Source of the DNA: Leucoraja erinacea | Taxonomy: Eukaryota | Reading direction: 5' to 3' | Assembly (NCBI RefSeq): GCF_028641065.1 | Contig: NC_073416.1 | Coordinates: 6,758,001-6,822,000, forward strand | DNA: 64,000 bases | Shown: one piece after another, positions 8,480 through 62,971 of the stretch | Layout: every line of letters starts with the position of its first letter | How positions within the stretch are numbered: the first letter of the stretch is position 1 | Translations under genes and position numbers: made by a program | Notes under the pieces: model-generated | Seen by the model: the letters and a program-made list of their open reading frames with translations, nothing else | Databases searched by the model: none | Told to the model about the DNA's origin: nothing

Positions 8480-8569
8480 TAGACACACAACGCTGGAGTA
8501 ACTCAGCGGGCAGGCAGCATCTCTGGAGAGAAGGAATGGGTGACGTTTCAGGTCGAGACCCTTCCTCAG
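8480..8569 (-). mobile_element. Penelope-LTR-derived unit with an intact minimal hammerhead core
   Basis: Reverse complement of 8542-8569: CTGAGGA-A-GGGT-CTCG-ACCT-GAAAC-GTC. Flanked by AGGCAAAGA direct repeats (8471-8479, 8568-8576). Confidence 0.75.
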
Positions 8570-10442
8570 GCAAAGAGTTCTTAATTCTGCTTTTGTCATT
8601 TTACAGGGCTACCAATGGACCAGTAGTTAACAGATTTTATTCAATTGATCAGACCACAATTGACTTGAAGAAGCCAATACCAGGCACAATTTCTATCCAG
8701 TGTTCCCAACAACCTAACTAGAGCAGTTTCCAAAATTAACAGGAACATTTATTCATTTTCAAAGAAATAAGCAACATAGAATCACTACGGTGCAGGTGGA
8801 GACCATATGGCCTATAAAGTCTATGTTAGTTCATACTCAGGCTATCCCATCAGTCCCATTCCCCCCCATAGCCCTGAAAATTATTTTCTCCAAGTGCCCA
8901 TCCAGTTCTCTTTTGAAAGCCCTCCTTGGCTGTGTTTCTAACACCCTTATAAGCCACAAATTCCAAATCATAGGAGACCAGTATCCGCCCACCTTCAGAT
9001 GTAGGTGTCTAGCTGAGCAGATAAAGCAGGGCTGTAAATAACACAGGGGCTCAGTAAAGCAATTTGTTTTTACTCAATGAAGAGTCCACTTCGTTGATCC
9101 CCCTCCATCCTCGAGTGTGAGACACCAACTCCGGCCAAGCAGAGCAGACTCCTCCAGGTCCTGTCAACGACCAGCCTCTGGCAGTAGACCAACACAATCG
9201 GCCAGACTGCCTGGGCACAACAAAATATCAAAGCCCAAGCTCACCCTCAGTCAAGTACAGTTGCGTCCTCCATACTCCCTGTGAAAGAGTTGCTGTCACT
9301 GTAAAACTTTGCTCTCCCCAGTAAATATAAAGTATCTCTTAGCAGTTGCGGTAGTCCATTTAAAAACCAAAAATCACAGGGCACATTGCTGACTAGAGTC
9401 CAGCTGCTGCAGAGATAGAATTGTACTGCATTTATGGTGGGATCACAGTATGATTCATGACCCAGACTTGCAACAGAAGCCGATGAGGAAAACAAATGTC
9501 AACCACCCGAGGATGAAGCAGCATGCTAGACCAAGGATCAAGGTCAAGGATGTCAAGTTCCCAAGAAATCTCTGGAGCAGGACTGGGAATGATTAGGCAG
9601 GAGGAAATTCTCACTTAATTGAACTGTAAAAGAGAGATGTTCAGCCCATCATGCTGATGCCTGGAAGAGCAGCGTAATCAGTCTAATTTCACTGCTCAGC
9701 AAAACATTGTCTTTAGGTTTTGAATTTCATTTCTTTCACTTTATTCACTGTGATCCATCAGCGTGGGCTATACCCATCAGCTTTTACATTCAATTCCAAC
9801 CTTAATCTGTAATCGCCCACAACCAAAATACCTAGTCAGCCTCTCAAAAATACATTTTCCCATTCATCCATTCCACCTCCCCCCCCAATCGAAAATAAGC
9901 AGCTTGAATTAGGTTTATCAGCTGAGGTGAAGTAATAATACATTTTACATGTTCCTATTAATGCAAATCATTTCACATTCACTTGACCTCTGCCAAAGTG
10001 GATACAGATTCATGCTTCGCAAAACTGGGTTCCCTTAGAACCAGCGTATTTGGGGAACATTTCCCCCATTTTAGTGCCCTGGTAATTCTACCCTTCCTGC
10101 TACTTACAGGAAAACAATCCTGCTTTCGTCAAAATACACTGTTATAGTTTGGACTATGAATTCAGTTTGCTGCATCTCATACTCAGTAAAATAGACTGGC
10201 TTTGCTCTTAGTTCTGCTACAATACCAGCTAAATCCCACACCACTGAACGCATTGGCCAATTGTGGTGCAGATACTCTATGGAACATCTTCTTTGCTCTA
10301 CCTATTGTATTTGAGTTCAGTTGGGTTGTATCTACAGTATGTATAGTACTATCTGATTTGACAGCATGCAAAATAAAGATTTTCACTGTAACTCAGTGCA
10401 CACCACAATAATAAATCCAAGCCTACTATCAAATATACCAAA

Positions 10443-10520
10443 GATAGACACAAAAAGCTGGAGTAACTCGGCGGGACAGACAGCATCTGGGTGACGTTTT
10501 GGGTTGAAACCCTCTTCAGA
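10443..10520 (-). mobile_element. Penelope-LTR-derived unit, hammerhead core with GAAA>AAAA change
   Basis: Reverse complement: CTGAAGA-GGGT-TTCA-ACCC-AAAAC-GTC. Shares the family body GATAGACACAAAAAGCTGGAGTAACTC. Confidence 0.7.
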
Positions 10521-12874
10521 CATGCGGGCATTCCAAACCGGATCGGAGAATATTCCACCTCTTAACTTTATTACTAATAACTTGAACAAAAAGACCTTTG
10601 ATATTTGGCCACCTCCATTGCCAGCACCTCCTTGGAGGCAATTTGCATGATCAGTTAGAGTACGTCATGGTCGAGTTAATTCTCGGAGAGTATAAAAGCA
10701 CTTCCCATAAATAGCTCCATTCATTAAGGGAAATTTATGGGGATCATATGTAACAATGTAAAATGCATTAATTACATTTTGGTGGAGTCAGATAATCATG
10801 CATCATTTGTCTAATTGCTCAGTGACAAGCTGTCTGCTCGTCATTAATATGCTGAATGAAATGATCAGTAACAGCAACTGAGATTGGGGCTGCACACCTA
10901 TACCCGGGTTTTGACATACATCAACCAGTCCAGTCCATAAAAGATTACTTTGGTTTCCCTTAACATCGCTACGCACAGCAATTATCTCCTTAATTTTTAC
11001 TTAATTCGAGAATCTTGCCAGTGTTGTATCAAGAATCAACCCATGATTAACAGGAGGAAGGCTGCTGTATGCAATTACAGCATTGTAAAAATTACAGTTA
11101 AATTAAGTATCACTGAGTGTGAACATCTCAATGAGATGGTTCTCACGATTCAATGAAAGTGCTCGTCACATTGATTGCCCAGAGAACTGGAGCCCCAACA
11201 TGATGAGATGATAGCGATTCAGACATTATTGAATTGGTTACGAGGCAATTGTCATACTTACATTTAAAAAACATTTGTAAGAAGAGTTTAACATTGATTG
11301 GCACAAAGCTTTGCATGGAGGCTTTCATGAGGCATAATAAAAAAGGGATTTTATTGTACAGAGGCTTCATTCTCTGAATCATTTTATACTTATAGCGCAG
11401 AGTCACCAAGTGTAATGATGACATCATTTAGCTGTGGAGTCATCCGTTCCTCCCTACATTTATAGCCCATGCCAATGACATCAGGAATACTGTGGAGACC
11501 ATCACTAAAAGAAAACAGTCATCAGCCATATTATCTTATGTTACCCTACAAGTCGTATCATCAGCCACCCTTGGTTGTAACACAAACAACTAGCTAATCA
11601 GAAACCCAAAGAGAGAGAGAGATAGTCATCAGGGCCTGCCAGTTCGGAATTAGATGAGAGAGATTTTAAAAAAATTATCAAGGCCTCAAGTCCAACAGAT
11701 GAGGAACAAGCAACTCACCCACTTGACCTTTGACGTTATAACCCATCCCGATGCAAATATGTGCATCAAGTTCAAAGCTTCGATGAAAGAGCAGACAAAT
11801 AATTTGTAACATAACACACCAACAACAGAAAATTCGAGAGCCACTTACACCTTACACCTTGTACTAAGAGCCACCAATTCCACTGACAACCAGACACTCT
11901 CACACTTAAGCAAACGTTGCCTCTTATGCAGTGGATTATTCTTGGCAGACAACAGCAATCCTAAATTTATACATAGAATAAGAAGGTTGTGGCTTATATA
12001 TGGCTATTGAAGTTTAGTCAAATGTACTTGAACAGCTCACTTCATCCCACCGCTTTCACTGGTGCAGCTAAGGGCAGAATGAAGATATTTCTTCAGTTCT
12101 CCTCTACATGGCTCTAGACATTCTTTTTAACTCTAGATTCAATAGATCTGCATCCCTCGGAACATCAAGATGAAATTATTCAGCCCCTCGAGCAGCTTCT
12201 ATCATTCAATTAGATCACAGCCAATTTGTCACTTATTCCATCTACTCATCTTGGTTACGTCAACTTCCTTGAACTTATCCAGCACAAAGTCGTATCAATG
12301 CATCTGGAATTTTTCAATTAATGTGCAGCTTATACAGCTTCTGCTGGTGTGATAGGAAAATAAACCAGTTCCACATTTCCACTACCCTACAAGTGAAGTG
12401 TATCCCGTTTTCATTCCTGAATGTCCCATCTACAAATTTAACAGCATGGCCACCTTATTCTGGAGTTCCAAAATAAAAACATCTTAAAGGAAAGCACTAA
12501 AATTCTTGCAAGGAAGTAGAGGTAGATTTCCACCTTTGTTTGAATGCAGCGGTCCATAGTTCACCATTAAAAAAAACAATGTATTACACCTTCATCCAGG
12601 GATTGAAAGCAATATTTTAGAATCAATATCACAAAATGATGGCTATTGAACAGTTTTAATAGGCGCAACCTTCAAGGCTAAATTCTGTGTATATTTGCTG
12701 GTGTGCACTAATGGCACATTCACACCCAAACTGAATACAGGGATCACTGCTGCAAAATAAGCCTCTTGCAAATTCCTTACTACTTTGCATAAATTGATCT
12801 AGACCATACAAGGACAGGTCAGAAGATGGGTGTCCTGTAGTGAGCGACTCACCTCCTGATGCCAAAAAGCTTTT

Positions 12875-13600: not shown

Positions 13601-13684
13601 AAGACAATTTCTCCGAACAACAAAATAACTTTATTCTGTATAGACATTGCATTCAACATCAGCACTTTGTTATTTCTTCACGTT

Positions 13685-22892: not shown

Positions 22893-23604
22893 GTAAAATA
22901 ATTACCAGCGAAAAATGTGATCAGTTTTCAAGAGAAAATAAAAACACTTTTTTTCATGTCATCCCAAATTTAAAAGAATGATTTCTGACTTACCTTCGTA
23001 ATTACATCTATTTTCGACTAAACGCCCAGCTGAAGCCCCGCGATGGTTTTCAGCACCTTTGTGCCATTGTAACATATTATTCTAAAGTATTGACAGGGTG
23101 AAAAAAGATGAATATAACACTACCCCCACCAGCATCCAAACAATTTTTATATCTCACGGGTTAATACTCCAGGTGAGAGCGACCAGCGAAGTTGCACTCG
23201 TTACAGCTTCAAAACCAATGAGCGCGAGAATTTGGGTCGATCCACCCATTTCAGTCTCTATGCGCCCAGCATCTCTTGGCAAGAAGTGGATTAATTAATT
23301 GAAGGCGTCTCGCCTGGGAAATTGCTCACGAGCCTTCCTGGTGGCTGCCTGTCTGGGCAGAGGTCAGGAAGACTAACACCTTGGCCGGTCCCACCTTCAT
23401 CTATCGTCCTCATTTGTCGTTTCTCTGATTCACTCGTGGCTTCACCTCGCGTCCATTAATCTCCGTGTTGCTTCCGAAAGCAAAATACAGTAGATGCTCG
23501 AAATCTGAATTCAAAACAGAAAATGCTTAAACTACGGCATCGGGCCATTCAGTATTTGTGAAGCAACAGAATTAACGTTTGAGGTCAATGAACTTTCATC
23601 AGAA

Positions 23605-23766
23605 CGAGATAGACACAAAAAGCTGGATCAGCGGGTCAGGCAGCATCTCTGGAGAGAAGGAATGGGTGACGTTTCGGGTCCAGACCCTGCATCAGACGAC
23701 TGAAGAAGTGTCTCGACCCGAAACGTCACCGATTTAAACCAGCACCTGCAGTTCTTTCCTACACAT
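23605..23766. mobile_element. Inverted pair of Penelope-LTR hammerhead units inserted into an older related unit
   Basis: Minus core CTGATGC-A-GGGT-CTGG-ACCC-GAAACGTC and plus core CTGAAGA-A-GTGT-CTCG-ACCC-GAAACGTC (23700-23727). Flanking TTTCA(T/C)CAGAAC repeats. Confidence 0.75.
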
Positions 23767-25114
23767 TTCACCAGAACTATCCAGTTTCTCTCTCCACATA
23801 AGCTGCCAGAGCAGCATAGTTCATGTGTCAGAGGAGCAGAATTGGGCCATTTGGCCCATCTAGTCTACTCTGCCATTCAATCATGGCTGATCTATCTTTC
23901 CCTCTCAACCCCAATCTCCTGCCTTTTTCCCATAACCCTCCACACCCTTACTCACCAACAGTATTCTAGCATCATTTTTATTCCCCTAGCCTCTCCATCA
24001 CTGGCCCCATTTCAACACAATAACAGGGCAGAGGAATGGTCCCAACACCAAATGTCGTCTTTCCATTCCCTCCACAGATGATGCGTTGCCCGCTGAATTC
24101 CTCCAGCATTTTATGCTTGATAAAATTAAAACATACATACCTGAAAATAAAGGATTCTTCTATTCAAACTCAGAGATTATAAAGTGCAGAGCAGAGTACA
24201 AGGATTTTTTTTTAAATGTAACAAATAAAATTCCTCTTCCTGCGATTCTGTATTGAGTATGATCAAGTAGTTAACATGGATTAACCTTTCTGCAAAGTTT
24301 GAGGAAAGGAACTTGGTGTACTTCAGAGTTGGGGCACTAACGGCATGATTTGAGTCCACTTTATTTGGCAGCATGATTGGCAAACATAATTTTCCCCACT
24401 TTTTCTCCATTCTCATTTCCTTACAACATGGGAGGCTTTTTGGCCCATCAAAGCAGAGAAAATATGATCTAATCTGTTCATCCTTGGATGTATCCTCACA
24501 TTTCTGAGATGATCCTTGTAAATCTCTTCATCCTCTCCAGCATCCTTTACCCTTTTATATAATAAGGTGACCAGTGGCCACCCTGTGGTCTAACTATGAT
24601 TCAATACAGGAACATCAGTGCACCTGCCCAGCATTTGTAGTAGGTACACATCATAATCAGTGAAAAGATCTGAAGCAATTAAAAAAAAATATGCTTGACC
24701 CTAGCTAGGACACAAATTCACCTGTATGTGGACATTGAGTTTTGTCTATGGAACTGGAGTGCTACAATGCACTGCAGTGCTGAGAACTATATTCTGTACT
24801 CTGTATCTTCCCCTTTGTGCTATATTTCAGTTTGACTTGATTGTATTTATATATGGGAAATCAGATCAATTTGGATAGCATGCAAAACAAAATGACACAT
24901 GACAATAGTAAACTTAAATCTATAAATGCAAGTCATTGTTTAATGAAATACAATCACTTTATTTTTCATTTTAAACACAAGAGACACAGGTAGGACAAGG
25001 GAAGTGATTTGGGGTCTCTTGATTGAGATTTCAAACAAAATGACCAAGATTTATTGAACCATTTGCTCACACATTTAACTCCTTTTGATTTCTCCTTTTA
25101 ATATTTGCCAACAG

Positions 25115-29014: not shown

Positions 29015-29502
29015 ATCTATTCCTTTCTAGGATGTTGTAGGAGTAGCAAGGCACAATGCTGGACATGTAATGGGCTCTGGACAGTCAATACTGATGATGT
29101 AATAATAGGAATTTGATGATTTTGACAGATGTTAGACACACTTCCTTCACCTCCGTCCTCTGCTTTGACTATTTATTTTGAAGAGGACAAGAATAGTTCA
29201 TGCAAAAGGTTTTGATTGACTGTATTTTTGCAAGAGAGAATTATTACCTGGCAGACAATGTGACTGTTTAAACGCAGAAGTGAAATTGGCTGTTCCCTTA
29301 TTTATTCCAAAACAAATCAAGTATTATGGTACATATTACATTTGATGTTAGATTCATAGTCCTGATTTAAAGTTAACAAATATATTATTGGACTTAATGT
29401 TAAATTCTATTATGAAGGCATATTCTGATGGTTCCTCCCCACCCATCTCTCCTTTTTATTTTGTAGATAGGTTGATTGCTGTCCAGTCCCTTATTGGGAT
29501 AT

Positions 29503-29687
29503 GTGTAGGAGGGAACTGCAGATGCTAGTTTACATAAAGGATAGATACATAATGCTGGAAAAGCAAAAAATGCTGGAACCTAGTGAACAGGCTCTGAAGA
29601 AGGTTCTTAACCCAAAACATCACCCATTCATTCCTTCTATCTAGAGATGCTGCCTGTCCCCGAGTTTCTCCAGCGTTTTATATCTAT
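29503..29687. mobile_element. Penelope-LTR-derived inverted unit, degenerate hammerhead
   Basis: CTGAAGAAGGTTCTTAACCCAAAACATC at ~29594. Flanks CCCT(T/A)ATTGGGATA. Confidence 0.65.
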
Positions 29688-30699
29688 CCCTAATTGGGAT
29701 AGACCACTTACAACATAGTGTAGCCTTGTGGCTTACATTAAGTTGTATAGTATGCACCACTGATTTAATATAAAAGCAGAACATAGGAAATACACAGCAG
29801 GTTTAGAAACACATGTGGAGGAAGAAACATATTAACATTTCAGGTCCAAATCTTTTCACTTAACATGAAGCACACTACATGGAAAGCATGAGAAAATATG
29901 CAGGTGTAATTGGCATCCTTAACAAGCCTTTAAAAAGCTATCACCTGGTCTATTGCATCAAATTGCTCCCCGGAGTAACATGGTTTTGAAGGGCTCCAAT
30001 TCCATACAGGTTAAAGTATCAAATTACCACACACTAATAGATAGAGTCATGAAATCAGCGCAGCTCAAATTAAAGAAAGAACTTCAAAAACAATGAATAC
30101 TCAGCATGTGGAGATAATCATTAAGATGCCAATTAGTGCACCACCTCGGCTGGAGTTCCTTCTTGAACTGTTTCACAATTTGACACAACCGAAGGGTTAG
30201 TTTTGTGTGAAACCACCGGTTTCCTTGATTCAAACATTGTTTATGTTCGGTTTGTTCCTTGGTGATTGCTTTTGTTTTCCACTAATATTGAGTTTTTTTC
30301 CTTCTTTTTTTGTTGTTATGCATCTATTGCGAACTGTGTTTTCAGATCTGTTCTACTGCTACAAGTACAAGTACAAACACTCTTGACTCTTAAATCAGTA
30401 AATAAACCTGAAATACTGCAGATGTAAAAAAAAGCTGAAAACCCCCCAATTCTGATTGTGCACAGTCGGCGAGGCAGCGTATGGGGAGGGAAACATTACC
30501 ACAGTCAGTACAACTGTTCCTGACTACAGTAATATTAAGACCTTACAAAAAAAAAACTACAAGACTGATGCAAAATATGATTTTTTTAACTGTAATTTGT
30601 AAAAGTCAGTCGGCACACTCGTTTTACGAGAAGCGGCTTAAATTAAACAATATTTTTTATACTTAGTAACATTTTCTACCTGTTATAACGACGCTCCTG

Positions 30700-30875
30700 G
30701 ATTAGGAAGGAACTGCAGATGCTGCTTTAAACCGAAGATAGACACAACATGCTGGAGCAGTCTGACACAACATGCTGGAGCAGTCTGAAAAAGGGTCTCG
30801 ACCCGAAACGTCACCCATTCCTTCTCTCCAGAGATGCTGCCTGTCCCGCTGAGTTACTCCAGCTTGTTGTGTCTG
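30700..30875. mobile_element. Penelope-LTR-derived inverted unit with 14-bp TSD
   Basis: TSD TAACGACGCTCCTG (30686-30699, 30876-30889). Core CTGAAAA-A-GGGT-CTCG-ACCC-GAAACGTC. Confidence 0.8.
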
Positions 30876-31260
30876 TAACGACGCTCCTGTTGCGAGCCAC
30901 CTTCAGCGGCCATTCCTCAACGGGGATTGATGGTCCGGAGTGAAGCGGTTACTTCGCTCTCTCATGCACAAGGGAGAGATGCGGCCTCGACGCTCGGCCC
31001 GGCCCGGCCCGGCCAGTCATCTGCCTCTCGAGCACAGGGACTTCTGCAAACATTCCATCATTTTTCCCGCTCTCTCGAAAGCATTGGCCGAGCCACCCCC
31101 TGCCGCGCACGCGCCCCGTCCCCTCCGATGCCGCTCGCTGCTGCTGCTCCTTTCCCCAGTCACCGAGCGTCCCAAAGTCAGTCCCCGCGTCAGGGACGGA
31201 GTGAGGCGGCACTCGGCGCTGCTGATCGTGGGTGAAACAAAACAAAATCCTGGCCACACT

Positions 31261-31350
31261 TGTCTGAAGAAGGCTCCCGAACCGAAACGTCACCAACCCA
31301 TGTTCTCCAGAGATGCTGCCTGACCCCCTGAGTTACTTCAGCACTTTGCT
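31261..31350 (+). mobile_element. Penelope-LTR-derived unit, hammerhead core retained
   Basis: CTGAAGA-A-GGCT-CCCG-AACC-GAAAC-GTC (31264-31291), then the family body CCAGAGATGCTGCCTGACC..GAGTTAC. Confidence 0.7.
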
Positions 31351-32314
31351 TTTTTGGGTGTGGCCACACAAGAGACTGCTGCTGATGCTGGCATATGCAG
31401 TCAATTCACTATCCCTCTGCTGATGCTGTCTGACTCGCTGAGTTCCTCCAGCAGCTCGAAAAAAAGTCTCGGATTGCAGAATCCGCAGTTTCCACAAACG
31501 AGTCAATTTAAGTCATTGCAGCGTCTCCCGTGTCCACGAAATGTACCGTGCGGCCAACTGGTTATTTCTGAAATGCCATCACAGTTTGTAGTTCAGTATG
31601 CACACTATATGGCACACAGATAGGGATCATGTGTATACAGATGAGATTACTTTATCTTGGCGGACAATGTGGCCTGCTCATGTGCTGTACCTTTCTATGT
31701 TCTAATCATGAATGAATGAATAAGTTTATTGGCCAATTATTCACATACAAGGAATTTGCTTTGGTGCTCCACCCGCAAGTGACAACAACATACAGTGATA
31801 GTTAGGAATGACACATAAAACATTAAACATTAATAATAAAACATTATTGATTAAAAATTAGAATACCAGAGCAAAAGGAGGCAACAGATTTTTGGTTATT
31901 GAGTAGAGCTAGTAAATTATAATCATATCTAGTAAACTAGTTTAAAATGTCTTTGGTCAGGGATAAATGTTAGCTCGATTCCTTGCATTTACTTCACAAT
32001 GCATCCAGGAATATTTTCAATCCATCTGAATGGGAAGGAGAGGATTCAGTTGAATGTTTTCCACCCTCCCCAATATTGCAGTTCCTCATTACTGAGCTGC
32101 TCCATCAGCCCATGATGGTCAGTGAACACCTGGACGGAGGACCTGGTGCTAAAGTCGGTCTGCGCACCCCTTGTCACGAGATCACTGACATACAATTTCA
32201 TTTTAAAGAAAGACTTGTATTGACATAGCATCTTGACTTTAAATAAAACACTGTCAAAATGTCTTGGAGCGTAATGACATGCAGAGTGATTGGTTTTACA
32301 CTGATTCTTTCCAG

Positions 32315-34136: not shown

Positions 34137-34557
34137 GTAAAGAATAGCTGTTATTATTTTGGGGGTGGGGGCGGGTGCGTGTAGGAACAATATAATTGTC
34201 TGCACATATACTCATGCCAGGCAGCATCTGTGGAGGAGAAAGGACAGATGACGTTTTGGGCTGGGACCCTTCTTCAGTCTCTAAATGTTATCTGTCCGTT
34301 TTGCTCTGGTGATGCTACCTGTCCTGCTGAGTTCCTCCAGCACTGATTTATGCTCATGATTGCAATCTCTCATCTCTCCATATTCCAGAACTATCACCCT
34401 CCCAGGGCGAAGCAGGGATACCCGGTTAGGCCTTGTGATTTCGGCCAAGAAAATAGCTCTGAACACAATTCAATCAGAATATGTGCCACAGAGACACTTA
34501 AAGCAAGGGACAAATTGTGTTTATTCATCTCTTTAATGTGATTATTTCTCTCTTCAG

Positions 34558-35370: not shown

Positions 35371-35682
35371 TGCTACAGAGAAATTCTGATGAAAGGTCAT
35401 CGACTTGAAATATTGCCCCCAGGGGCTTGAGGCCATATAATCATTTGAATTATATATGAAAATATGATTACATATTTAAAAATATGGTGATGATTATGAT
35501 CGTGAAAGATATGTGTTGTCAAGTTATAGATGTGTATCCACATGTTCATCCCAAAGCATTAAGGACATGAACGCCTACTTCTCTGTTCATGCCCCTGTTC
35601 CACCATGGAGAAATTAATTCAACAGATTTGAAAGGTCATGATCAAAATAAATAAATCCATTACCATTGTATTCCTTTGATAG

Positions 35683-35861: not shown

Positions 35862-36470
35862 GTAGGAATTCAGCATTCCAAATTCAGAGAATTTCATGTT
35901 CAATTCGGTATTCCTTGTAGACAGTCTGTCAGGGCAGCTGTCCGTTGGCAATTACTGATAAAACGTAAGGTTTAATCAATCCTTGCTTCATGCTCTGGAG
36001 GCAGTTTACAATATTCACTATATTTTGTGCTTTTTACTTGGTTTGCTACCTCTGAGAATTCTTTAGTGAGATTGACTGTTGGATGATTCAGGGATTTCCC
36101 CAAGAACAAGGAATACATTTTATGAGTTTAAAATATAATATTTCCATTTTGAAATCTATAATATTTTGAAATGTTAATCTGATGAAATTGCAATTCCTAC
36201 ACATAAAGTATAATGTTCAGAGTGCTAACGAATCGATATCAGGGTTTCTCTGCCATTTCAAACTTAGTTATATAGGATGACGTACAGTGAGAACACTTCC
36301 TACATAACTAAATGTGTAGGAAGGAACTGCAGATGCTGGTTTAACCCGAAGATAGACACAAAAAGCTGGAGTAACTCAGCGGGGCAGAGATGCTGCCTGT
36401 CCCACTGAGTTACTCCCGTTTTTTGTGTCTATCCTAAAGTAAAGTTATTGTCGGATTGTTGATTTCTCAT

Positions 36471-42438: not shown

Positions 42439-43394
42439 ATCAATTTAACATCAACAGATTTCAGTTCCTTATTCCAGCTCTTTCACAATGGTGATGGTTA
42501 ACAATTGTGAATATTGGAACATGATCTTTGTGTCTGTTCTGCCATTTGCAAACCAGCTTTACATCCTGCAATGGTAAGGAGCAAGCTCAGTATCTGTTCC
42601 AGCCAGGTTCCCAAGTGTTGTTTTTCAAATCAAACCCCGATAATACGTTAATCTGCAATCCTGGCCTCATGCTGGTTAAACAGATGCAAAAATCCAACTG
42701 AACCCCTTGGATTTTAGCAGGTTAATTGACATTGGGAAATTGAAGTATTAGCATGTGTAAATATTAGGAGATGCAAGGAAGCACAGATGCTGGTTAACCA
42801 ACAATACACAAAGTGCTGGAATAACTCAGCAGGTCAGGCATTTCTAGAGAACATAGACATATGACGTTTCGGGTTGGGACTCTGCCACTGTACCGCCCTG
42901 ATTTTTGATTGATCTGATATTTTTCCTTTGGTTGCAATATATATTAAACAAATCTACTCAATATTAAAATTTTGCTATTTATATAAAATTGATTAATATT
43001 CAAATATGATTTTCATTTTAATACTTTTTTTCATATAAATATATTTAAATGTTTCCAATAGTGGTTCCTGGTTCAGTTGGGAGTTTCTCGCTATACAATG
43101 TGATACTCCTGTAGACGAGCAATAGACTAGACAAGTAATAAATTAGGATAATGGAAAGTTGAGGTTAAATATTTTCACCCAGATACTGGCGGGAGTTTGA
43201 TTTAGAATACACGCATTATATTTAAAAAGTACCTGAATGAACACTTACTGTGCTGTGACCTTGATTGAGATCTGGGCAATGGGATGAGGCTGGATACTTC
43301 TTACAAGCTGCCGGCACTTACGTCGTGGGTCTAATGGCTCCCTCGGTGACTCTCAACTCCTACGATTCTATGATTATCTTTAGAATGGCGACAT

Positions 43395-44395: not shown

Positions 44396-47080
44396 GTGAG
44401 CTCCCCCGTGCCATCACATTCAGGTATTCAATATTTCTTCGTTTAATCTCAATTGCTTCTTCTCGAATGAGTCTATTCATTTTCGTGGAGTATTACCTCG
44501 GGACCAACTTTGGAAGGACTCGATGAGTAATAATTTCCAAATTAAAAGTAAAATCCAAAACGAATGTTAATGGATTCGTGAGGGGTGGCTGATGTCTATT
44601 CTCACTCTTTATTTTGCACTGATATTAAACTTCAAAATTATTCTTCTATGGCTCCATCGAATTACTGATACCTTGTGATTTGCTTTCCTGTATGTTTTAT
44701 TTCTTGATAGTGCAAAGAGTTGTTAATAACTTGACATTTGTTGTCTCCATAATACTGAATTGTGATCTGCTATTGAGTTGTGTTTTGAGAAGTTGTTTGA
44801 ATGCGTTTACACCTTTTAAAATAAAATGTCGATCGAAAATGATATCTTCAGTTAAGAAGTTGCTGGTTGTAGCCTTTTATACTTATTACTGAAAGACACA
44901 CTGAGTTAAGTCAGAGTTTCAAAAGTGTCTTTTTAATGTTAATTTATTTTCAGTGTAAGACCCATGCATGTACTGTTTCTACTTTTTGGTTTAGTGTCCC
45001 ATCTTATCATACGTTTTGTAAAGCTGCTCTGTGAGACCATTGTGGAATGAAAAATTTGCTTCAATTAAAATAACTGGAAGAATTAACAGAAAACTTGTAG
45101 AATTTACTGAGTACCTTGGGGGGGAGAGAAATAGTTTTGGGGAAATGTGACTGTAATCAAGTGACTTGTTAAATTGAGCAAATGGAATGAAACACTTCCT
45201 TATTGATGCACCTTTTATTTGTTTGGGCGGGGAAGGAAAAAAACTGGTTCAAAGAATCCTGAGATAAACACAATGCTGGAATAACTCAGCAGGTCAGGCA
45301 GCATCCCTGGAGAAAATGGTTACGTGACATTTTGGGTTGGGACCTTTTGTCAGTCATAACAGATTGAGGGGGGGGGAAGATAGCAAGTTGATGTTCCCAT
45401 TTGAGGAGATGGCTCTCAAGTCACTAAGTCAGTTGGTGTAATGGATTAACAGAAGGTTGGTTGTAGGAACACACTCTAGCTCCAATCTGATATTCCCCAT
45501 GTAATGCCATTAATACTTTGTTTAAAAATAGTACATTGTCCTTTTAATATTAATGAAAGGAAAATCTGGGAGGCTTGAATTAAAATATTTACTGTTGACT
45601 GGAAATTCCCTCCACCTTTTCCTGGTGAGTCAGAATTATGAATTGTGTACTTAAGGATGTATTATTGTGCCAGATGTTTGACTGCGATGCCAAGCTTCAA
45701 TTTAACATATAAAACAAAATGTGGGCTTGTCGAATAGACTATTCAAGTGACCTCAGCCAATGGGTTCAAGCCATGCTCCAAGTTGGTACTTAAATGCTTG
45801 ACGGAGGGGGTACTGAATAGTTCGGAATTGCTATCTGTTTACCATTTATACACTGGGATCTATCAATCTATTCAGATGGAGGGGGTGAAAAGACCCCAGA
45901 ATTTCTGGTTAATGATCAGCTGAGTTCTGGCAAAATATTTCTCCCTCGGCCAGAATTTCCACACAGATTGAGCAAATGGAATGCTGTTCGGGTTGTACAA
46001 CCAGCTGTTCGGGTTGTACAAACCAGCGACCGCGGTTGCTTGTGAAACAATGATTAAGGTGCCTTGGATGCAAGGAGCAGTGTAAATGTAAGTTGGTCAC
46101 TCCTTTTTGCATTGGATTAAGAAATGAATACAGTGCATCAGGCGGTGTCTCACCGACTGATCCCCACTGTAAAATTGTCAGCTAAGGGGAGAACTGGATT
46201 TAACTTGTATTTTTCTGTCTCCCCTTGTCAAAGCCACCTGACACTTCATCGTCTAGACAATGTGATGAGAAACTCCAGTGTGAATCACCATCCATTGGGA
46301 GAAGAGGGTGGTAGTTGCGATTATATGTAAAAGATACATAATGGTTTAAGTAATGGTTCGTGTGACAGCACAGCAAACTATGCTCAAATGGTTACGTTAC
46401 TGCCCATGTAAGGTTTGATTTGTTGATCTGCCAAAGATTGTTCCATGATGTTGAGAAGTTGCTTTTTGTTTTGTGCTCATCAACAGCTGCTGTTCTCATT
46501 TTCCAGTTGTGCAACAAAGCTGCAAAACCAGCTTGCCTTTTTTTTTAATGACTGTTAAGTTTTTAATCAAACTGACTTTCCTCTTCAACCTGACGTACAA
46601 CTTTACATTTTTCCATCCTCTGACATGGCAATTATTTGGGAAGTACGGGGAATAATTTTTGTACTTTGTACATGGTAGGCAGTGAAGCATGTGAAGTGTT
46701 TTTGGCACAAAGACTGTAATGAGATGTAATTTAGAAACCAGATTGTGGTGGGTGGGAACCACTGAAATTAAATCGCTGTGTTCTCACCATCTTCCTGTCT
46801 CCCCAGAATGTTTCCTTGCATTAACTCACCTGCAATTATCTGCCTTATTTAATTTCAATTCCTTTGAAATGTCTCTATCTCTGTATCTGTCATCCAGGGA
46901 GCACTGCACCCTGGACTGGTGATGATACACGTGCTTCCTGATGGCTGTGGTTTTGTGCCCCTCATTTGAGACTGGGATTATTCAATGCACCTTCTTGTTA
47001 TGTTGTTGCAGATTTTTTTTAATGAAGCATTTAAACTTTGGGTTCCTGTGACTGCCAACTAGGGTGGATTGCAGTGGAGT

Positions 47081-49253: not shown

Positions 49254-50719
49254 AAAGGACAACGGACATTTATTGTCACATACACCAATTGGTGCAGTGA
49301 AATTTGAGTTGCCATGCAGCACACAAATAAGATAAACACGACACTTTAGAATTTAACATTAAACATAAACCCCCCCCCCCCCCCAGCGGAATCAACGTTT
49401 CCCACTGAGGGAAGGCACCAAAGTTCAGTCCTCTTCCTCAGATCACCCGTGGTTGGGGCCCATTGAGGTCTCCGCAGTCGCAGCTACGGCCCGATGTTTC
49501 AGGCCCTCGAACGGAAGACCACTCTCAGCGACCCGGAGCCTCCAAATCGGCCACTTCTTACAGGAGACCACGGCTTCCGAAGTCCACAGGCCGAGCTGGG
49601 CGGAGATTCATAGAAACATAGAAAATAGGTGCAGGAGTAGGCCCTTCGAGCCTGCACTGCCATTCAATATGATCATGGCTGATCATCCAACTCGGTATCC
49701 TGTACCTGCCTTCTCTCCATACCCCCTGATCCCTTTAGCCACAAGGGCCACATCTAACTCTCTCTTAAATATAGCCAATGAACTGGCCTCAACTACCTTC
49801 TGTGGCAGAGAATTCCAGAGATTCACCACTCATGTGTGAAAAATGTTTTCCTCATCTCGGTCCTAAAAGATTTCCCTCTTATCCTTAAACTGTGACCCCC
49901 TTGTTCTGGACTTCCCCAACATCGGGAACAATCTTCCTGCATCTAGCCTGTCCAACCACTTAAGAATTTTGTAAGTTTCTATAAGATCCCCCCTCAATCT
50001 TCTAAATTCTAGTGAGTACAAACCGAGTCTATCCAGTCTTTCTTCATATGAAAGTCCTGACATCCCAGGAATCAGTCTGGTGAACCTTCTCTGCACTCCC
50101 TAGATGGCAAGAATGTCTTTCCTCAGATTAGGAGACCAAAACTGTACGCAATACTCCAGTTGTGGTCTCACCAAGACCCTGTACAACTGCAGTAGAACCT
50201 CCCTGCTCCCTGATTCAATGCTGGTGACCTCGGCGAGAGATCCCAGGGCTCCGCGATGTTAAAGTCAGTGCTGCCCGTCACTGGAAAGTCAGCGCCGCCT
50301 GCGGCTGAAAGCTCCACAGACCACAGCTCCACCGTGTCAAAGTCGGCAGTCCCAACACTCAGGAGCTTCAACACGGCGACCCCGGTAAGGCATCGCTCGC
50401 TCCGCGATGGAATCCAGTGCTGCGCTGCCGCTGCTGAAGCTGGGGGTGAGGCAGCATCTATGGAGCGAAGGAATGCTTGTCCCACCTCCAGGTGGTAGGC
50501 CGCGAGGAGAGGAGGGGAGGGGCGAAGATGCGGCTCAGAGAATAGTCGCATCCTCGACCAGGAAGTGACCAAGAAAACAGTTGTTCCCTCCCCCCACATA
50601 AAAAAGACTAAAACATCTTCAGAAACAAACTTTAAAACAGACTAAAACTAACAAAAAGAATGAAAGGACAGACAGCTGCAGGCTAGGCAGCCACATTTGA
50701 TGGCACCACCACTCGTCAC
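49254..50719 (-). mobile_element. GC-rich non-autonomous Rex1-tailed retroposon, itself interrupted by a CR1
   Basis: Related to 25618-26471 at both ends. Minus-strand tail GTGTATGTGACAATAAA. Confidence 0.65.
49611..50211 (-). mobile_element. Young 5'-truncated CR1
   Basis: QRRFTRLIPGMSGLSYEERLDRLGLYSLEFRRLRGDLIE. TSD GATTCA (49605-49610, 50212-50217). Confidence 0.92.
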
Positions 50720-52554
50720 CACTAGTTCTATCCTATGGACTAGGTACAATTTACAGAAGCCAATTAACCTACAAACCTGCACATCTATGTGATGTGGGAG
50801 GAAACCCACATGATCACAGGGAGAACGTGCAAACTCCATACAGACAGCACCGAGAGTCGGGAATGAACCAGTTTCTGGCACTGTGTGTGAGGCAGCGACT
50901 CTACCACTGTGGCGGCCCTTGCTTCAGTGTAATTATTGGCTGACAGTGTTGCCAATGGGTTTGTTCATTCACATTGAGCAAATAGTCAGTTGTACAGCAG
51001 ACAGTTAAAGAAAAGAGTAAATAGTCTGTAAAAGCAGAGTTAAATTTCAAAAAATGGATGAAATGTGCATAAAATCTTCTTCAGTTGCAGCACATTAGAA
51101 AGGAATTGTCCTATTATCTTCACTTTGGTCATAATGTGAAGCCTTTTTTTTAACAGAACAAATCTCGCCTCTTTTCCCCATCCCTCCCTGATTTTTTTTT
51201 TTTTTTTTTTTTCTTTTTTTTTTTGCCCATCGTCTTAAAATTTGACCTGGTTACTAACCAACCGCTAACCAAATGTTTAATGCAGATGCTGGAAAAATCG
51301 AAGGTAGACAAAAAAAGCTGGAGAAACTCAGCGGGTGAGGCAAAATCTATGGAGTGAAGGAATAGGCGACGTTTCTGGACGAGCCCTCAGACAAAGCTAG
51401 AGAAAAGTTTTTTGTTTAGTTCAGAGATACCGTGTTGAAACAGGCCCTTCGGTCCACTGAGTATACGATGAACAGCGACTGGAAACGTTGCCTATTCCTT
51501 CTCTCCATAGATGCTGCCTCACCCGCTGAGTTTCTCCAGCTTTATTGGCTCACCAAATGTTCTCTCTTTTCTCCTTCCAAATCCATTGCTGTTTGTGTGA
51601 AAACTATAAAGGCAGCTGACAAATTTAAAAGCATGTGTTGATGTTGTGTAGGGACCTGGAATCTTTACATCTTGTCATGTGTTGGCCTTGCCACCAATAC
51701 CCACATCACAAGAATGAGTAATAAAAGTCAAGTCGCAATTGTTCCTCCTGCAAAACTTGCTAAAACCACTCTTCAACCACCCCTTGTGTTCTTGGCAGTT
51801 TGATGAAGACCTTCTGGTTAAAGTCTATGTGATGTATGTAAAGTCTATATTCCTTCGCTCCATAGATGCTGCTGCACCCGCTGAGTTTCTCCAGCTTTTT
51901 TGTGTAACCTTCTGGTTAAAGTCGCTGTGCTCTCTAAGTTTGTGGGTTGTGTCCACAATATAACCTTCCTCCAATACTACATTATGGACACAAACGGCAG
52001 ATGCTGGTTTACATAAAAAGACACAAAGTGCTGGAGCAATTTAATTGGTCAGGCAGCGCCTCTATTCTCCAGGGATGCTGCCTGACCCACTGAGTTACTC
52101 AGCGCTCCCATTATTGGTCGCTTGTATTTCCCAAATGAATTGTTCCTTCACTACACTTTTTTTACTTTCAAATATTTAGAACATTCCATGTATCAACAGC
52201 AAAAAGCAACAAGAAAAACTGCCCATGCTGCAAAACTAAAATAAAAGCAGAAAATGCTGGAAATACTCAGCAGGTCACATGTTCTGAATGTTCCTTTCAC
52301 TCCAATTTGGGCACAATCTTTAAAATTCAAAGCTGGTGTATATGACCTGTAAAGCTTCTCCAGGAGGTTGAATCTACCCTGTAACTAGATGCTCTTTACT
52401 CAAATGGTTCACAAAACATGTGAATAATTTGGATAACGTTGCATATTCATGTCTTGTAGTACATGAAATATTCAGTGGTGAAACACTAGCGTGATGAAAT
52501 AATTAAATTGGGCATGCTGGGAGGTTTGGGACATTTATTTATTGTTGAATTTAG

Positions 52555-54134: not shown

Positions 54135-54600
54135 AACAGTTGCCAAATACTTTAACTCTCCCTCCCATTCCCATACTGACCTTTCTGTTGTGGGCCTCCA
54201 CTGTCAGAATGAGGCCCAGTGACAATTGGAGGAACAGCACCTCTTATTTCACTTGGGCAGCTTGCAACCCAGCAGTATGAATATTGATTTTTCTAACTTC
54301 AAGTAACCCTTGCTTTCCCACTATCTCTGTCCCTCCCCACCCTAGTTTTCTGACTAGTTTTACTGTCCTGATTAATTGTACTGGTTTTTGACTGACTGTA
54401 TGCCCCGTTGTCACCTTCCCCATGGTTAATAATGTACCATTCTACATTTCCTTCAACTACGTCTGCTTTGATCTGTCGTTTTCCCACCTTGCCCTTCCAT
54501 ATCTCTCGAATCCCTCTCCCCTGACTCTTAGTCTCAAGAAAAGTCTCGACCTGACATGTCTCCAGAGATGCTGCCTATCTTGCTGAGTTTGTCTATCTTC
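54135..54600 (+). mobile_element. Penelope-like element 3' end: GIY-YIG C-terminal remnant followed by LTR with a decayed hammerhead
   Basis: VAKYFNSPSHSHTDLSVVGL..LEEQHLLFHLGSLQPSSMNIDFSNFK* (to ~54306). Then a pyrimidine-rich LTR ending in CTCAAGAAAAGTCTCGACCTGA..CCAGAGATGCTGCCT. Confidence 0.8.
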
Positions 54601-57117
54601 TGTGTTGACTGCAATTGTCTTTTGCATAACTCCTTTTTATACGAGCCTGAACTGAAGAATTCCCCCTTTTATCATTTCTCTTCTGTTAACACTCATTGTT
54701 CATACAAAGACTTGATCAATAAAGGCGTGCCTGAAAGGGAGAAGGTATCTAGAATGGAAATTTGTAAGTATGGATAACAAAATTTGCACAACTAATCAAA
54801 CATGGATTTTATTACCTTAAAGCAAATTGCATTTATCGCCAACACCATGAAGTTTCCTAATTTGTTTGATACTGCCAGTAACCTGACATGATAATTCAGC
54901 AACATGCGTACTGATTTTCTTTCTTAGCCTCGGCTGACTCACCGTTTTACAGGATACTGCCTGCCACGCCTTTATCTCCTTGACTCAAACCTTCCACTGC
55001 AGTCCTGCCCATTCTATTCTCTGTAAATTTGAGGTAACCAAAAACACTTCCACCTTGTATCTTGACGCACTAAATTGCACCTGCCCTTCTTCCCTATGCT
55101 TGCTAAATTACACTGGCTCTCAGTTAAACAGTTTCAAAACTTCTCAGCCTTTCTTTCAAATCACACCAAAGTTTGTTTTTTTCCCTCTGCTTTCCTTGTC
55201 AGCCCTTAGATCGTTGTGCCTCTCCAATTTTACCCTCTTGATAAACTCATTCTATCATCCAAGGCCAATCATTTATCTGACAGGGAGCTAATCTCAGAGG
55301 CCTTCCGCAAACTGCTCTTTCTTGAGTGTATGCACCCCTTCTTCAAACGTGCTTTTTGCATCTACTTGTCCGACCAAATCTCTGACCAACCCCATTTTAA
55401 TGTCATGGAGTCACGCAGTGCAGTATTGGGTCCTTCAGCCACTGAGAGTGTGCTGACTCATTTGCCCATTTAGTGGCCAATTAACCTATCGACTGTCGTG
55501 TCTTTGTGATGTGGGAGGAAACTCTGAGGGAGAACAAGCAGACAGCACCTGAGGACAGGATTGAACCCTGGTCTCGGGCACTTTGAAGCAGTGGTTCTTC
55601 ACGGTGCATCACTGGCTCTAATATCTTTTTGTCCTGCTGCTGCTAAATTCCTTTTGGCTTTTTTTTAAGGATCCAATATAAATGCTTTTGTTGGGAATAG
55701 GAGGATTGCACGTCCTACCTAGTTCTTCCCCTCCCTCGGGTTTAAATCGTATGTTGTCCCAGCTTGAATATAAAGCTTGGTGCTTGGGTTTATGAAAGCT
55801 GCTTTGCTCTGGGACAGTGCCTCCAAGTGAGCACCATCTTGCAATGGAAAGAAGGTTATTCAAAAAATTTATTTCCAGTTTCTTGACTATTTTATTTTAA
55901 AAAGTTGTCTCTTTTATAAAAATAAATAATAATCATTTGTCCTATTTGCTGTTCATGGTACAAGGCAGACAACACTGATCCATTTAAAGTGAGTTTAGGG
56001 TGGAGGCTTATCTTATGTAATATTCAGTTTTTGTTCTTGCCTATTAATATAGATGGAAGATTTTAATTTGGGCTTGCAGCTGGGTGTGGATTGCAACAAA
56101 TGAAAATAGTGCCAGCTGCAGATTTTTTATAAAAGGAACTGTTGGCAAGGAATGATGGAAAGAAGGGAAATGTTGGAAATGTACTTTGAGTTGGTACAGA
56201 GGGGCTAGCTTTGCTGTCCTCCTACATAATTGTCTTTGGAGTTCGAACTGGGCACAAATGAGCATTTCCATATTTCTGCCCAACTGCCACATAGAAACCT
56301 TTGGGTCTGAGGTTTTTTTTAATGAGCGAGATGTTGTCATGAAGCTTGAATAGCTTTGTTTCTAATTAAAGAAGCATGGGGAGTTTTTTGAATGAAAATC
56401 ACAGCACAATCTGATCCAAGATCAAATAAATAATTTTCATAGATGGATTGATTAATAGTTTGGTGGGGGCTTGTGTAATTGTGCTTTGCACCTCCACAGA
56501 CAAGTATGAGCGGTTATTTTTGGATGCTATTAATTTTCTTGCTTCTCCCTGTGTATGTAGCACTTGGCATTATGTTTGAGAACACAAATTACATGTTTCT
56601 TTTGCAGAAAACCTGGCCCTAAATACAAGGGTTAAAAGCTGTTCCCAAAATGTGGCGGCAATTTGTGTACTGTGCAAAGCTGCCCCAACCTTTCCGGTGG
56701 TTTGTGTCTGGAGACTATTCGCACTCAACTGAGATGGGACTTTCTTTACCTCGCATCACCACTCCCCAACCTCCATTAAAGGCATAGCCTACTTTCCAAA
56801 ATCTTTGTCACCAAAAGTCTGTCTGATTTATGACAGTGAGTGCTGTTATGTCAATATGATACTGCTGCTTAAAAGGCACAGCTAAAATGAATTTGACATT
56901 TGAGATTTAACCAGTGTGGAAATATTGCCCTGAAGTCCTGCCTTTCACATTCTTTTACGGCCTGAAGTCCCACAACCTGAATAACCAGGCGGTGGAGCTT
57001 TGTTCACCAGCATCAAATACTTGGAGGCTTCATTTTGATGCTTGAACTAAAATTTAACTTTTATTCATGTTGCCACATAACAATTTTGACAATTTAAACT
57101 GAAGCACTGATGTCCGT

Positions 57118-57890: not shown

Positions 57891-58012
57891 GCAGAGAATA
57901 TGGAGACGACCAAATTCTGTTCATGCTGTGGTCTAGTTCCATTCCAGCTCAGTTGTTGGAGGCAAGGTGTAGTATTGCAGTGAGAAAGGCTGGTGTGATG
58001 ACATAGCCTACT

Positions 58013-58896: not shown

Positions 58897-59344
58897 GAAC
58901 ATAAAAAAAGTGCTGATGCTGATTTATACCAAAGATAGACATAAAGTCCTGGAGTAACTCAGCTGGTCAGGCAGCATCTCTAGAGGAAAAGAATAGGTGA
59001 CATTTCTTCAGCCTGTGAAGAAGGGTCCTGACCTTGTGGAGTTTTTACGTTCTCCACGTGACCTGCATGGATTTTCTCTGGGTGCTCCAGTTTCCACCCA
59101 CACTCCAAAAAAAGTACAGGTTTGTAGGTGAATTGGCTTCAGTAAAATAGTGTAATTGTCCCTAGTGTGTAGGATAGTGTTCGTGTGCGGGGATCGCTGG
59201 TCGGCGAGATGCTGCCGGGGGTTATGGGGAGAAGGCCTGTTTCCACGCTGTATCTCTAAACTAAACCTCAAATGTCACCTATCCTTTTCCTGCAAAGATG
59301 CTGCCTGACCTGCCGAGTTACTCCAGCACTTTGTATCAATCTTT
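58897..59344. mobile_element. Penelope-LTR inverted unit with a V-SINE (59035-59266, +) inserted into its hammerhead stem
   Basis: TSD CACTGTAAAGGTA (58884-58896, 59345-59357). TGAAGAAGGGTCCTGACC | SINE | CTCAAATGTCACC. Confidence 0.75.
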
Positions 59345-60990
59345 CACTGTAAAGGTACTGATTTTGAAAGGGTATATGTGTGTGAATAAATGCATACTCA
59401 ATATTTTTATTCAATTTATCCTTGAGTTATTAATGTAGTCTCTGGACCTCAGCCTGTGCTTAATCTATCCTCGTCCTCTCTGTTTAGTGTTAGTTGAACT
59501 TCAAAGTAGTTTAAACTTGTGTTTTGTTTGGGCATTGTAGATGTGTGTATCTGAGCTTCAATCTGAAATTTGTAGGTTATTTTTGAAAAGCCTTTTGAAC
59601 TTGGGGTGAGTACTTTTGTTTTGGATTGATATTTTGTGAGATCTATTTGAGTTCTGACTGCTTCTAAAAATTCTGTGTTTCAGGCAGATTATAAATCCCA
59701 AAACAATGGTTCCATTAAAATAAGCTTTCCTGCAACAAGTTAGTATCACTTATCGAACCAAGCAGGCACACTATCTGTTGGTAACAAAGCCAGATTATTT
59801 GGTTATAAATAGCTGCAAAGTAACTCTTGTAGCTCACAAACAATGAGGCTCTGTATTCTGCTATTTTAAATTTGAATTTCAATGCTTTTTTTGTTTTGCT
59901 CTTATCTGATGTTATTTGGAGATGTGCATTACTTAAACGCATATAACGTTGAGACCACTTCACTGGGAAATTGGTCGGGAGTCCATTGGTGCAGGGCATC
60001 TTTATGTGGTGATTTCCTTCGCTCCATAGATGCTGCTGCACCCACTGAGTTTCTCCAGCATTTTTGTGTACCTTCGATTTTCTAGCATCTTCAGTTCCTT
60101 CTTGAACACTCTATGTGGTGAGTGTTTGGTTTGACAAGATGGATCGATTTGCCACACTGGATGCAAAAAAAAAAAAATCTCTTTGGAATGGTCCCACTGC
60201 CACCTGCAGTCCAATGAGATGGGTATTAACAGTAAAACAAAGTGCTGGAGGAGCTCAGCGGGTCAGCCAGTATCTGTGGAGGGAATGGATAGGTAACATT
60301 TTGAGCTGCTGCCTGACCCGCTGAGTTGCTCCAGTGCTTTTAGTTTTGCTCAAGATTCTAGTTCCTTGTGGCTCTGTGGGCATCAAATGCTTGGCTTGAT
60401 TGTATTCTTAGATCTTGCGAGGGCATGTGAATAGGCTCTCCAGTTCTGTACTTGCCAATGGATGTTGGGAGTATGGTAAAGTGAAGGGTCCCAAATGCTT
60501 TTTATTATTTAAGAAACTACTTTGTCAACTTGCCCTGCCACTCTTAATGAAGTGATACCCACTGATCTCTCTGTTCTAGTGCCCCCTTAGGAGTTTATAT
60601 TGCCCTTAACTAAAGTTTCTCCATATTAAGTTTCAATTGCTACTTATCTGCCTGTGCTTCCAGCCTCTCTCCATCTCCTTGCTATCTTTCAAACATTTTG
60701 TGACATTTCCAAGTGGCGTGTCCTCTGCAAATTTGGAAACAGTACTTTAAAACTTCACGTACAAATCCTTAATAAATTAAGTTAGAGTTGGTCCAAGTGT
60801 TGACCCTTTTAGAAACTTCATTGCATACATTCCTCCTGTCTGAAAAAGATATTTCACCGCTGTTGTTTAAACAATTAATCACTTGACCATTTTTTCTCCA
60901 TGCTGCTGAAGCTCCTCTATTTCATGGGCTTCATTCATGATGACAAGCCTTTTTATTTTTAAGTCCATGAACTGTGTTTACCTGATCAAA

Positions 60991-62024: not shown

Positions 62025-62365
62025 GGGGTGGAGTAGCGGCAGAGTTGCTGCCTTGCAGCACCAAAGACCCGGGTTTGATCCTGAGTACGGGTTCTGTCTT
62101 TACGGAGTTTGTACGTTCTACGTGTGACCGTGTGGGTTTCTGTCCACATTCTAAAGACGTGAGGGTTTGTATGTTAATTGGTTTCTTTTAAAATTGCCCC
62201 TGGTGTGTTGGGAGTGAATGAGATTAAAAGACATTTGGATAGGTTCATGGATAGGATAGGTTTGGAGGCATATGGGCCAAATGCAGGTGGGACGAGCGTA
62301 GGTGGGGCATCTTGGTTGCCGTGGGCAAGCTAGGTCAAAGGTCCTGTTCCCATACTTTGACTCCA
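62025..62365 (+). mobile_element. V-SINE (62025-62220) followed by a CR1 3' end (62225-62365)
   Basis: GAGTTGCTGCCTTGCAGCACCAAAGACCCGGGTTTGATCC head, then GACATTTGGATAGG..GGGCCAAATGCAGG CR1 end. Confidence 0.75.
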
Positions 62366-62875
62366 CATTTTATATAGTTTGTACTCCTCGCTCCCAATGT
62401 AGAAAAAAACCATGGCTGCAATTTACCTGCCAACTTGATTTGCATTCTCTTCCTGCTAGTTAGCAGCCTATTGAATGATTCCTGCACAGTAATTACATCT
62501 TTCTTAATTTTAAACCAATTCTGTCCTTGTTCGATCCAGGACATTCTCTCCCTCTTCAACTTTGTTTTCTCCTTTTCAATACTACCATTGCTCCGCCTTT
62601 CCTCCGATCCCTGTCTTACCTGAACTTTGGAATGATTGGAATCCTTCACTTCCAATCTTGTTTAATCTACTTCTTCGGTTTGCATGTATGTAAACATATC
62701 TTGGTCCTTCCTGCAGTCTCTTAGTCTGGGCTTGTCTGATAACTTTTGATTTGTTGTGTGCTATTTATCTCTTCCAATCCTTTGCAACTTTCTGTCTGGG
62801 CATAAACTATTGTTTTAATGCCAACCTGTAAAAGCTGTGGGGTGGAAATAGTGTTCCCAATGAATCTTTAAAATG

Positions 62876-62971
62876 TTTAGGAAGGAACTGCTTCAGAAGC
62901 AAGGTTTCCCATTCCTTCTCTCCAGAGATGCTGCCTGTCCCGCTGAGTTACTCCAGCATTTTGTGTCTACA
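62876..62971 (+). mobile_element. Short Penelope-LTR-derived unit with 13-bp TSD
   Basis: TSD AATCTTTAAAATG (62863-62875, 62972-62984). Family body CCATTCCTTCTCTCCAGAGATGCTGCCTGTCCCGCTGAGTTACTCCAGC. Confidence 0.75.

Follow-up and report, generated by a model that had tools for sequence, protein, structure and literature searches.

Hammerhead-bearing repeats of Leucoraja erinacea as putative end-pieces of a Neptune-type Penelope-like element

We investigated a 64,000-nt stretch of Leucoraja erinacea DNA (NCBI RefSeq assembly GCF_028641065.1, contig NC_073416.1, positions 6,758,001 to 6,822,000, forward strand; hereafter the window), which holds many copies of a short dispersed repeat with a minimal hammerhead ribozyme motif. 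Sequence and structure support that these repeats are pseudo-long-terminal-repeat (pLTR) end-pieces of an endonuclease-bearing (EN+) Penelope-like element (PLE), which its linker and structure would place in the Neptune clade. On balance, we favour the reading that the short copies (minis) are pLTR stubs of which about half start at the ribozyme's 5' edge via tail-primed reverse transcription that reaches an uncut transcript's 5' end and runs off.

Hammerhead-bearing repeats in the window

A repeat-end profile was built from 54 repeat ends, with reversed sequences as controls. It yields 29 matches in the window and 199 in 44 ten-kb loci picked blind at round coordinates, with 0 reversed matches in either case. 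For the 2.19-Gb genome, this extrapolates to a load of about 10^6 profile matches, where paired halves give two counts. The ribozyme stretch is spanned by 11 of the 29 window matches, and all 12 core positions, the four stem II pairs and the palindrome are intact in one of these 11. Within the blind loci, core, stem II and palindrome are all kept in 19/103 copies.

The original prediction, made from the window sequence alone, listed 12 places said to share one consensus. Each of them holds a copy or remnant, but the copies are more decayed than implied and the exact consensus has no match in the window. Its claim of a very abundant repeat is borne out by the genome-wide motif search it had proposed, i.e., 15,936 exact matches (control 0). 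A strict hammerhead descriptor finds 22 matches in 500 kb (0 reversed, 0 in five Markov controls), which extrapolates to about 10^5 descriptor-intact motifs genome-wide. The Rfam scan, also proposed, returned 23 matches at E<=10, none of them a hammerhead, and no Rfam model fits the motif. The window repeats are real but mostly decayed, broken copies.

Along the window, the mini-element at 8467..8571 (-) combines the hammerhead 8542-8569 with a tail and is the one window copy keeping core and stem II. Its stem I is broken, U2.1 is changed, and a 9-bp shared flank word likely represents a target-site duplication (TSD). The mini-element at 10430..10521 (-) starts 2 nt ahead of the core; its hammerhead (10493-10519) lost the extra A and shows G12A, and its tail carries a 15-nt deletion. 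A head-to-head pair at 23602..23734 (both strands) joins a minus-strand copy (23602-23697, A9C) to a plus-strand copy (23698-23734) with intact core and a stem II mismatch. Three plus-strand mini-elements follow, i.e., 29501..29700 (hammerhead from 29594, G12A, inverted tail piece upstream, 9-bp shared flank word), 30703..30876 (hammerhead 30785-30812, G8A, inverted tail piece, 14-bp TSD) and 31259..31353 (hammerhead 31264-31291, intact core, 3/4 stem II pairs, 2-bp stem I, 9-bp shared flank word). The pair at 34216..34344 (both strands) belongs to an older subfamily and carries G12A in its minus-strand hammerhead (34253-34280). For the listed place 42863 we find a partial copy without the 5' half of the core (42803..42883, -), while the mini-element at 45248..45355 (-) starts at the core and shows G8A and G12A in its hammerhead (45326-45353). 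The region 58908..59040 contains a minus-strand tail copy (58908-59007) and, near 59013, the 5' half of a plus-strand hammerhead.

Further copies consist mainly of tails. The profile search reports an old decayed copy (24029..24118, +), tail remnants at 31415..31457 (+) and 50440..50475 (-) and a tail-only head-to-head pair (36317..36444, both strands). Another head-to-head pair (51289..51552, both strands) flanks a different insert and has a 10-bp shared flank word. Within 51849..52100, a tail-only copy of the young subfamily (51849-51919, +; 98% to the element L076 described below) precedes an old tail pair (51994-52100). Four tail remnants are found in 59265..60360 (59265-59353 +, 60014-60098 +, 60227-60305 -, 60303-60360 +), and a tail-only copy with a 10-bp shared flank word lies at 62902..62980 (+). 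The tail includes a hairpin (e.g., 30847-30863) with a kept stem and a 3-nt loop that varies between subfamilies, which makes it a candidate stem-loop for protein binding or priming.

Remnants of a second, older and divergent hammerhead-bearing repeat with a 5-nt loop II were observed at 35386..35413 (+), an isolated core without tail that passes the strict descriptor and is missed by the repeat-end profile, and at 23571..23602 (-), found by the descriptor search. Beside these repeats, the window holds a 611-aa open exon (32305-34140, +) that resembles the N- and C-termini of FAM186A/B weakly, below the cut-off; several stubs likely lie in introns of this gene. Two LINE-type reverse transcriptase (RT) frames with RVT_1 and ALKBH8_N (37390-39792, +, 800 aa; 17406-18851, +, 481 aa) are unrelated to the PLE, and a long C-rich low-complexity tract (27178-27353) was a source of spurious miRNA matches.

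Source element and conservation of the motif

The link to Penelope, which the original prediction had only inferred, is now visible in longer copies. That is, 30 matches to the upstream extension run for varying lengths via a pyrimidine-rich 3' untranslated region (UTR) into GIY-YIG endonuclease and RT motifs. Within the window, this applies to a 5'-truncated element at 54139..54605 (+), in which a broken endonuclease C-terminus (54139-54300, 64% identity) is joined to the 3' UTR, a degenerate hammerhead at 54533 and a tail. The longest open frame among 150 scored of 12,395 RT-query candidates has 825 aa (L076). It comprises an RT, a CX4CxxC linker and, at its C-terminus, a GIY-YIG domain and ends 119 bp upstream of the core. 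Its homologs carry PF00078 and partly PF01541, while the endonuclease piece searched alone gives E=0.0096, i.e., weaker than the cut-off. The best homolog is from Chiloscyllium (69%), with further ones in rays and sharks, which points to a cartilaginous-fish host.

A second long copy, L218, has two hammerheads 4,143 bp apart, one per pLTR, plus an inverted partner, and its likely ATG lies 164 nt downstream of the first core start. Partial pLTR tandems and inverted 5'-truncated partners are found in L216, L217 and L218. The CX4CxxC of L076 is in accordance with the CX2-5CxxC linker definition in the consulted part of Craig et al. 2021 (PMC8557442), a linker common to Nematis and thus not exclusive. 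We provisionally assign the element to the Neptune type because the RT/GIY-YIG frame, the linker, partial tandems and inverted partners are Neptune hallmarks there. The motif listed for Acropora Neptune also occurs in L117, a relative with 47% identity. In addition, we observed a young element nested in an older PLE 3' UTR with a 15-bp TSD (L076:3518-3532, 6337-6351), for which reads join the empty-site form.

The subfamily majorities all present CUGANGA, GAAA, UH, an extra nucleotide, G10.1-C11.1 and palindromic positions 15.2/16.2. The extra nucleotide after A9, G10.1-C11.1 and the 15.2/16.2 palindrome are traits of the minimal hammerheads (min-HHRs) in the available part of Cervera and de la Pena 2014 (PMC4209133). 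The motif thus fits the minimal type I hammerhead that had been proposed, including the additional nucleotide and a short stem I, which has 2 bp in this lineage and lacks the third pair. Over 143 copies, the subfamily majorities keep the core and vary in loop II, pair 10.4/11.4, H17 and 1.1. A set of 69 young copies shows amplified variants at H17 (51 U/18 C), at 1.1 (61 G/8 A) and in the loop, while core sites are changed in 0-3 and tail sites in 0-6 copies. Since core and tail change alike in the copies and amplified variants occur at tolerated positions, constraint acts on the source elements rather than on genomic copies.

We also fetched relatives by protein alone from metagenome contigs, which gave 80 loci, 48 of them with enough downstream DNA. 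A hammerhead about 95 nt past the stop is found in 23/48 (controls 0 and 0.05), and its motif equals the sequence printed for Acropora Neptune in Fig. S3 of PMC4209133, as far as available. When compared with coral-type relatives (25 rows), pair 4 of stem II and pair 2 of stem I show double-sided changes, which amount to about 2 independent events, with 12/25 rows chosen by the pairing descriptor. Thus, the core conservation and stem II covariation expected for a hammerhead are seen at the lineage level, i.e., as a kept core and double-sided changes, but not as a copy-level excess of core over tail.

Freeing nine core sites in a genome-wide search added 208 matches to 5,328 (0.43% per site). 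The control for this search (7,265 matches) was swamped by copies starting inside the pattern, such that no ratio was drawn. A spreading core-dead A6G lineage was rejected given 3 matches at one locus only versus 5,328 intact ones. This locus (L216; G000:C2:33644407-33649533) carries the A6G/N7G core change in all three pLTR copies and nowhere else in the genome, and the copies share 6/6 private changes across a 350-bp overlap. Their likely origin is a single template segment or a parent since lost. A-to-I editing of the locus is not supported, as A>G makes up 8/24 changes, like in L220 (7/22).

Stem III is unable to close in a monomer (2-nt loop). Published min-HHRs show weak cleavage as dimers (PMC4209133, consulted in part), and the ribozyme of the anole Poseidon element PAc requires protein but is not needed for insertion in vitro in the part of Frangieh et al. 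2024 (PMC11167929) at hand. In the skate, cleavage by the ribozyme would require an ACGU:ACGU dimer and would be weak, probably helped by protein, and confined to source-element RNA, and most genomic copies would be inert passengers of host transcripts.

Copy ends and the origin of the short copies

Copies starting just ahead of the core were first seen in the control search of the core substitution test. To locate copy ends, an exact 35-nt tail word (49,427 genome matches) served as the anchor, and 97 of the first 100 copies listed were analysed. Relative to C3, 42 of their 5' ends fall at -8..0 and 16 at +1..+9 (together 58/97), none at -19..-9 and 27 further upstream. Stops per nt at the boundary are 0.068 versus a background of 0.002 (about 30-fold, p about 1e-54). 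For blind loci with copies of all ages (114 copies), 38/69 at-risk copies stop at -8..0. The cleavage site was rejected as the 5' boundary, with 1/97 5' ends at most 2 nt from it. These ends suggest uncut templates.

The 3' ends group at 8-18 and at 45-52 nt past the anchor, two clusters separated by about 36 nt, i.e., the optional 30-40-bp tail, a PLE trait, is present. A TSD-like word, mostly of 9-14 bp, occurs in 30/70 copies without inverted partner. The flanks of minis are host DNA, with 40/42 showing no element match and the other two being inverted pieces. The same counts reject the idea that an upstream exon is spliced in at the YAG preceding the core, and no splice joint of this kind is among the 15 RNA-read joints listed, with 112 and 20 more outside the listing. 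All subfamilies have a pyrimidine run that ends in YAG 20-25 nt past the cut site (window 30818-30831), and a YAG also abuts stem I on its 5' side. These conserved YAGs are possible splice acceptors; no joint at them is among those listed.

For the favoured reading, we propose the following steps. An initiator that overlaps stem I would set the start of the element's polymerase II transcript, about 3 nt before the core. The element protein would nick target DNA and prime cDNA at one of two tail sites, like in anole PAc, for which internal priming of an uncut template is described (PMC11167929, in part). Priming in the upstream tail copy would result in an 80-135-bp stub and priming in the downstream one in longer, randomly 5'-truncated copies. 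Such a run-off would also explain the 2-bp stem I. More tentatively, and with slightly less than even confidence, we suggest that the transcript starts three bases before the hammerhead and that the dominant stub is a directly integrated 'strong-stop'-like cDNA reaching from tail priming site to cap.

Promoter-like motifs are found at matching places. An initiator-like YYRNWYY overlaps the boundary in 52/62 long copies; 21/39 non-B copies have a TATA-like word at -32/-30, 20/23 B copies a GC-box-like word at -17, and 41/65 coral-type copies TATAAA at -37. A combination of TATA and Inr in a pLTR was noted for Adineta in the portion of PMC3846280 covered.

We further screened 1-5% of each of four raw-read RNA runs that bear the same species label and come from poly(A) and single-cell libraries. 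Coverage per orientation is 1,100-4,600-fold over the stub region, and about 2-20-fold over the unique 5' UTR, with 87-95% of the reads from bulk libraries continuing into unlike sequence. Stub reads show passive transcription within host RNA and cannot place a start. Within bulk RNA, one loose-end sequence sharing a TSD-like word dominates each stub side (L218:8177, 8267; 350-560 reads); these ends likely reflect one highly expressed host transcript carrying a mini.

Several observations weigh against the run-off from an uncut transcript. The 5' ends are scattered across about 18 nt and not at one base, and the promoter motifs are short and were counted without a shuffled control. No read-end pile is seen at -3 or at the cut site in the four RNA runs, whose libraries are ill-suited and where stub reads swamp the signal. 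Penelope of D. virilis has its start about 125 nt upstream of the hammerhead, and an intron separates the two (PMC2377424 and Table S1 of PMC4209133, each in part). With regard to the ribozyme itself, the copies show no visible advantage of core over tail in conservation, covariation is limited to the few events given above, and the active dimer is predicted at -6 to -7 kcal/mol versus -21 to -25 for the best fold (15-18 above).

We regard it as unlikely that, given the same element and motif, the boundary is made on DNA by endonuclease or repair at a preferred site before the core, or by RT stalling on a longer template. Such an origin would be in line with the PAc endonuclease cutting its own pLTR DNA (PMC11167929, part), with 5' ends ranging from -7 to +11 and with the inverted partner present in 27/97 tail-anchored young copies. 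On the other hand, the hot spot persists across subfamilies with differing upstream sequence, the boundary site is not AT-rich, unlike the PAc preference, and the promoter-like motifs are in register with the boundary. Furthermore, copies past the boundary continue at background rate, such that 0/27 stop within the next 11 nt.

Quite improbable in our view is a self-propagating, non-autonomous family similar to SINEs or monomeric retrozymes, in which minis are transcribed from minis and copied in trans. It could account for the extrapolated match number, the discrete sizes of 79-102 and 119-136 bp and the heavy read depth, and internal priming would not require poly(A). However, no mini-specific sub-lineage is found, i.e., tail types are distributed 28/23/5 of 63 in minis and 13/10/1 of 27 in long copies, the window holds no tandem arrays of the unit, and 95% of bulk reads continue into unlike sequence. 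Because sub-lineages and the long/short tail ratio (1:2) are common to minis and long copies, the minis are not a separate ribozyme-driven family. Of the original prediction, the Penelope origin stands, with Neptune as the probable clade.

A vestigial or non-catalytic motif that is merely hammerhead-like here (promoter, protein-binding site, splice acceptor region) would agree with the 2-bp stem I, the unfavourable dimer energy, the missing cut ends in RNA reads, A6G in all three copies of one insertion, PAc core mutants that insert in vitro (PMC11167929, in part) and 8/9 uncut Xenopus dimers (bioRxiv 10.64898/2026.07.22.740005, in part), but is very hard to reconcile with a core that is invariant over subfamilies and as far as the coral relatives, next to compatible changes in the loop, N7, H17 and both stems, and with A6G at a single locus versus 5,328 intact matches.

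If our proposal of a capped start at the boundary is true, several hundred thousand insertions map a transcription start and two RT start sites in vivo, and the ribozyme is normally uncut when copied. Stem I would have shrunk to 2 bp since the 5' copy has nothing upstream. A cut would remove a 31-nt capped leader, i.e., the ribozyme would be a switch on element mRNA and not an insertion step.

Relation to known systems

Hammerheads in PLEs have been known since 2014, hence the motif is ordinary; the sharp 5' boundary is a testable feature not found in print. Our literature search turned up no study that treats these elements in a shark or ray (with Repbase, Dfam and some supplements outside its coverage) and no report of a boundary at the ribozyme edge (some supplements outside coverage). 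The hammerhead's role and PLE transposition steps remain open according to the parts of PMC8557442 and PMC11167929 consulted. Here, the genome provides a very large in vivo record with ribozyme-edge 5' ends, two 3' ends and almost none at the cut site, and young near-intact source elements are present for testing. Given about 10^5 descriptor-intact motifs and reads in host RNA, it is also easy to ask whether the motifs ever cut host transcripts.

All comparisons below refer to the portions of the cited sources at hand. Closest to our motif are the min-HHRs of metazoan PLEs, especially of Acropora digitifera Neptune (PMC4209133). They share CUGANGA, the extra nucleotide, G10.1-C11.1, a 4-bp stem II, GAAA, the palindromic CG and UH, as well as the pLTR position after the ORF and mainly dispersed single copies. 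The skate stem I has 2 bp (U-A or U.G, G-C), that of the coral motif 3 bp. The Fig. S3 rows examined include no cartilaginous fish, and the 15,936 exact copies found here compare to about 4,000 in coelacanth and 9,000 in Xenopus.

The Neptune PLEs of PMC8557442 show the same RT, CX2-5CxxC linker and C-terminal GIY-YIG, together with partial tandems, an inverted 5'-truncated partner and an optional 30-40-bp tail. Dominant discrete 80-135-bp stubs with a sharp 5' boundary are not described there. Poseidon PAc of Anolis (PMC11167929) resembles our element in that two RT start sites downstream of the hammerhead define the tail, the RNA template is uncut and no reads end at the cut site. It differs by belonging to another clade without Zn linker and by an ORF that starts in stem II, whereas the likely ATG here is found 164 nt past the core start.

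Finally, non-LTR retrozymes (bioRxiv 10.64898/2026.07.22.740005, where one chondrichthyan was sampled) are likewise pLTR-derived, non-coding and equipped with a type I hammerhead. They form tandem arrays, and such head-to-tail hammerhead arrays are not found in the window. In contrast, the skate copies lie dispersed, singly or in head-to-head pairs, with TSDs.

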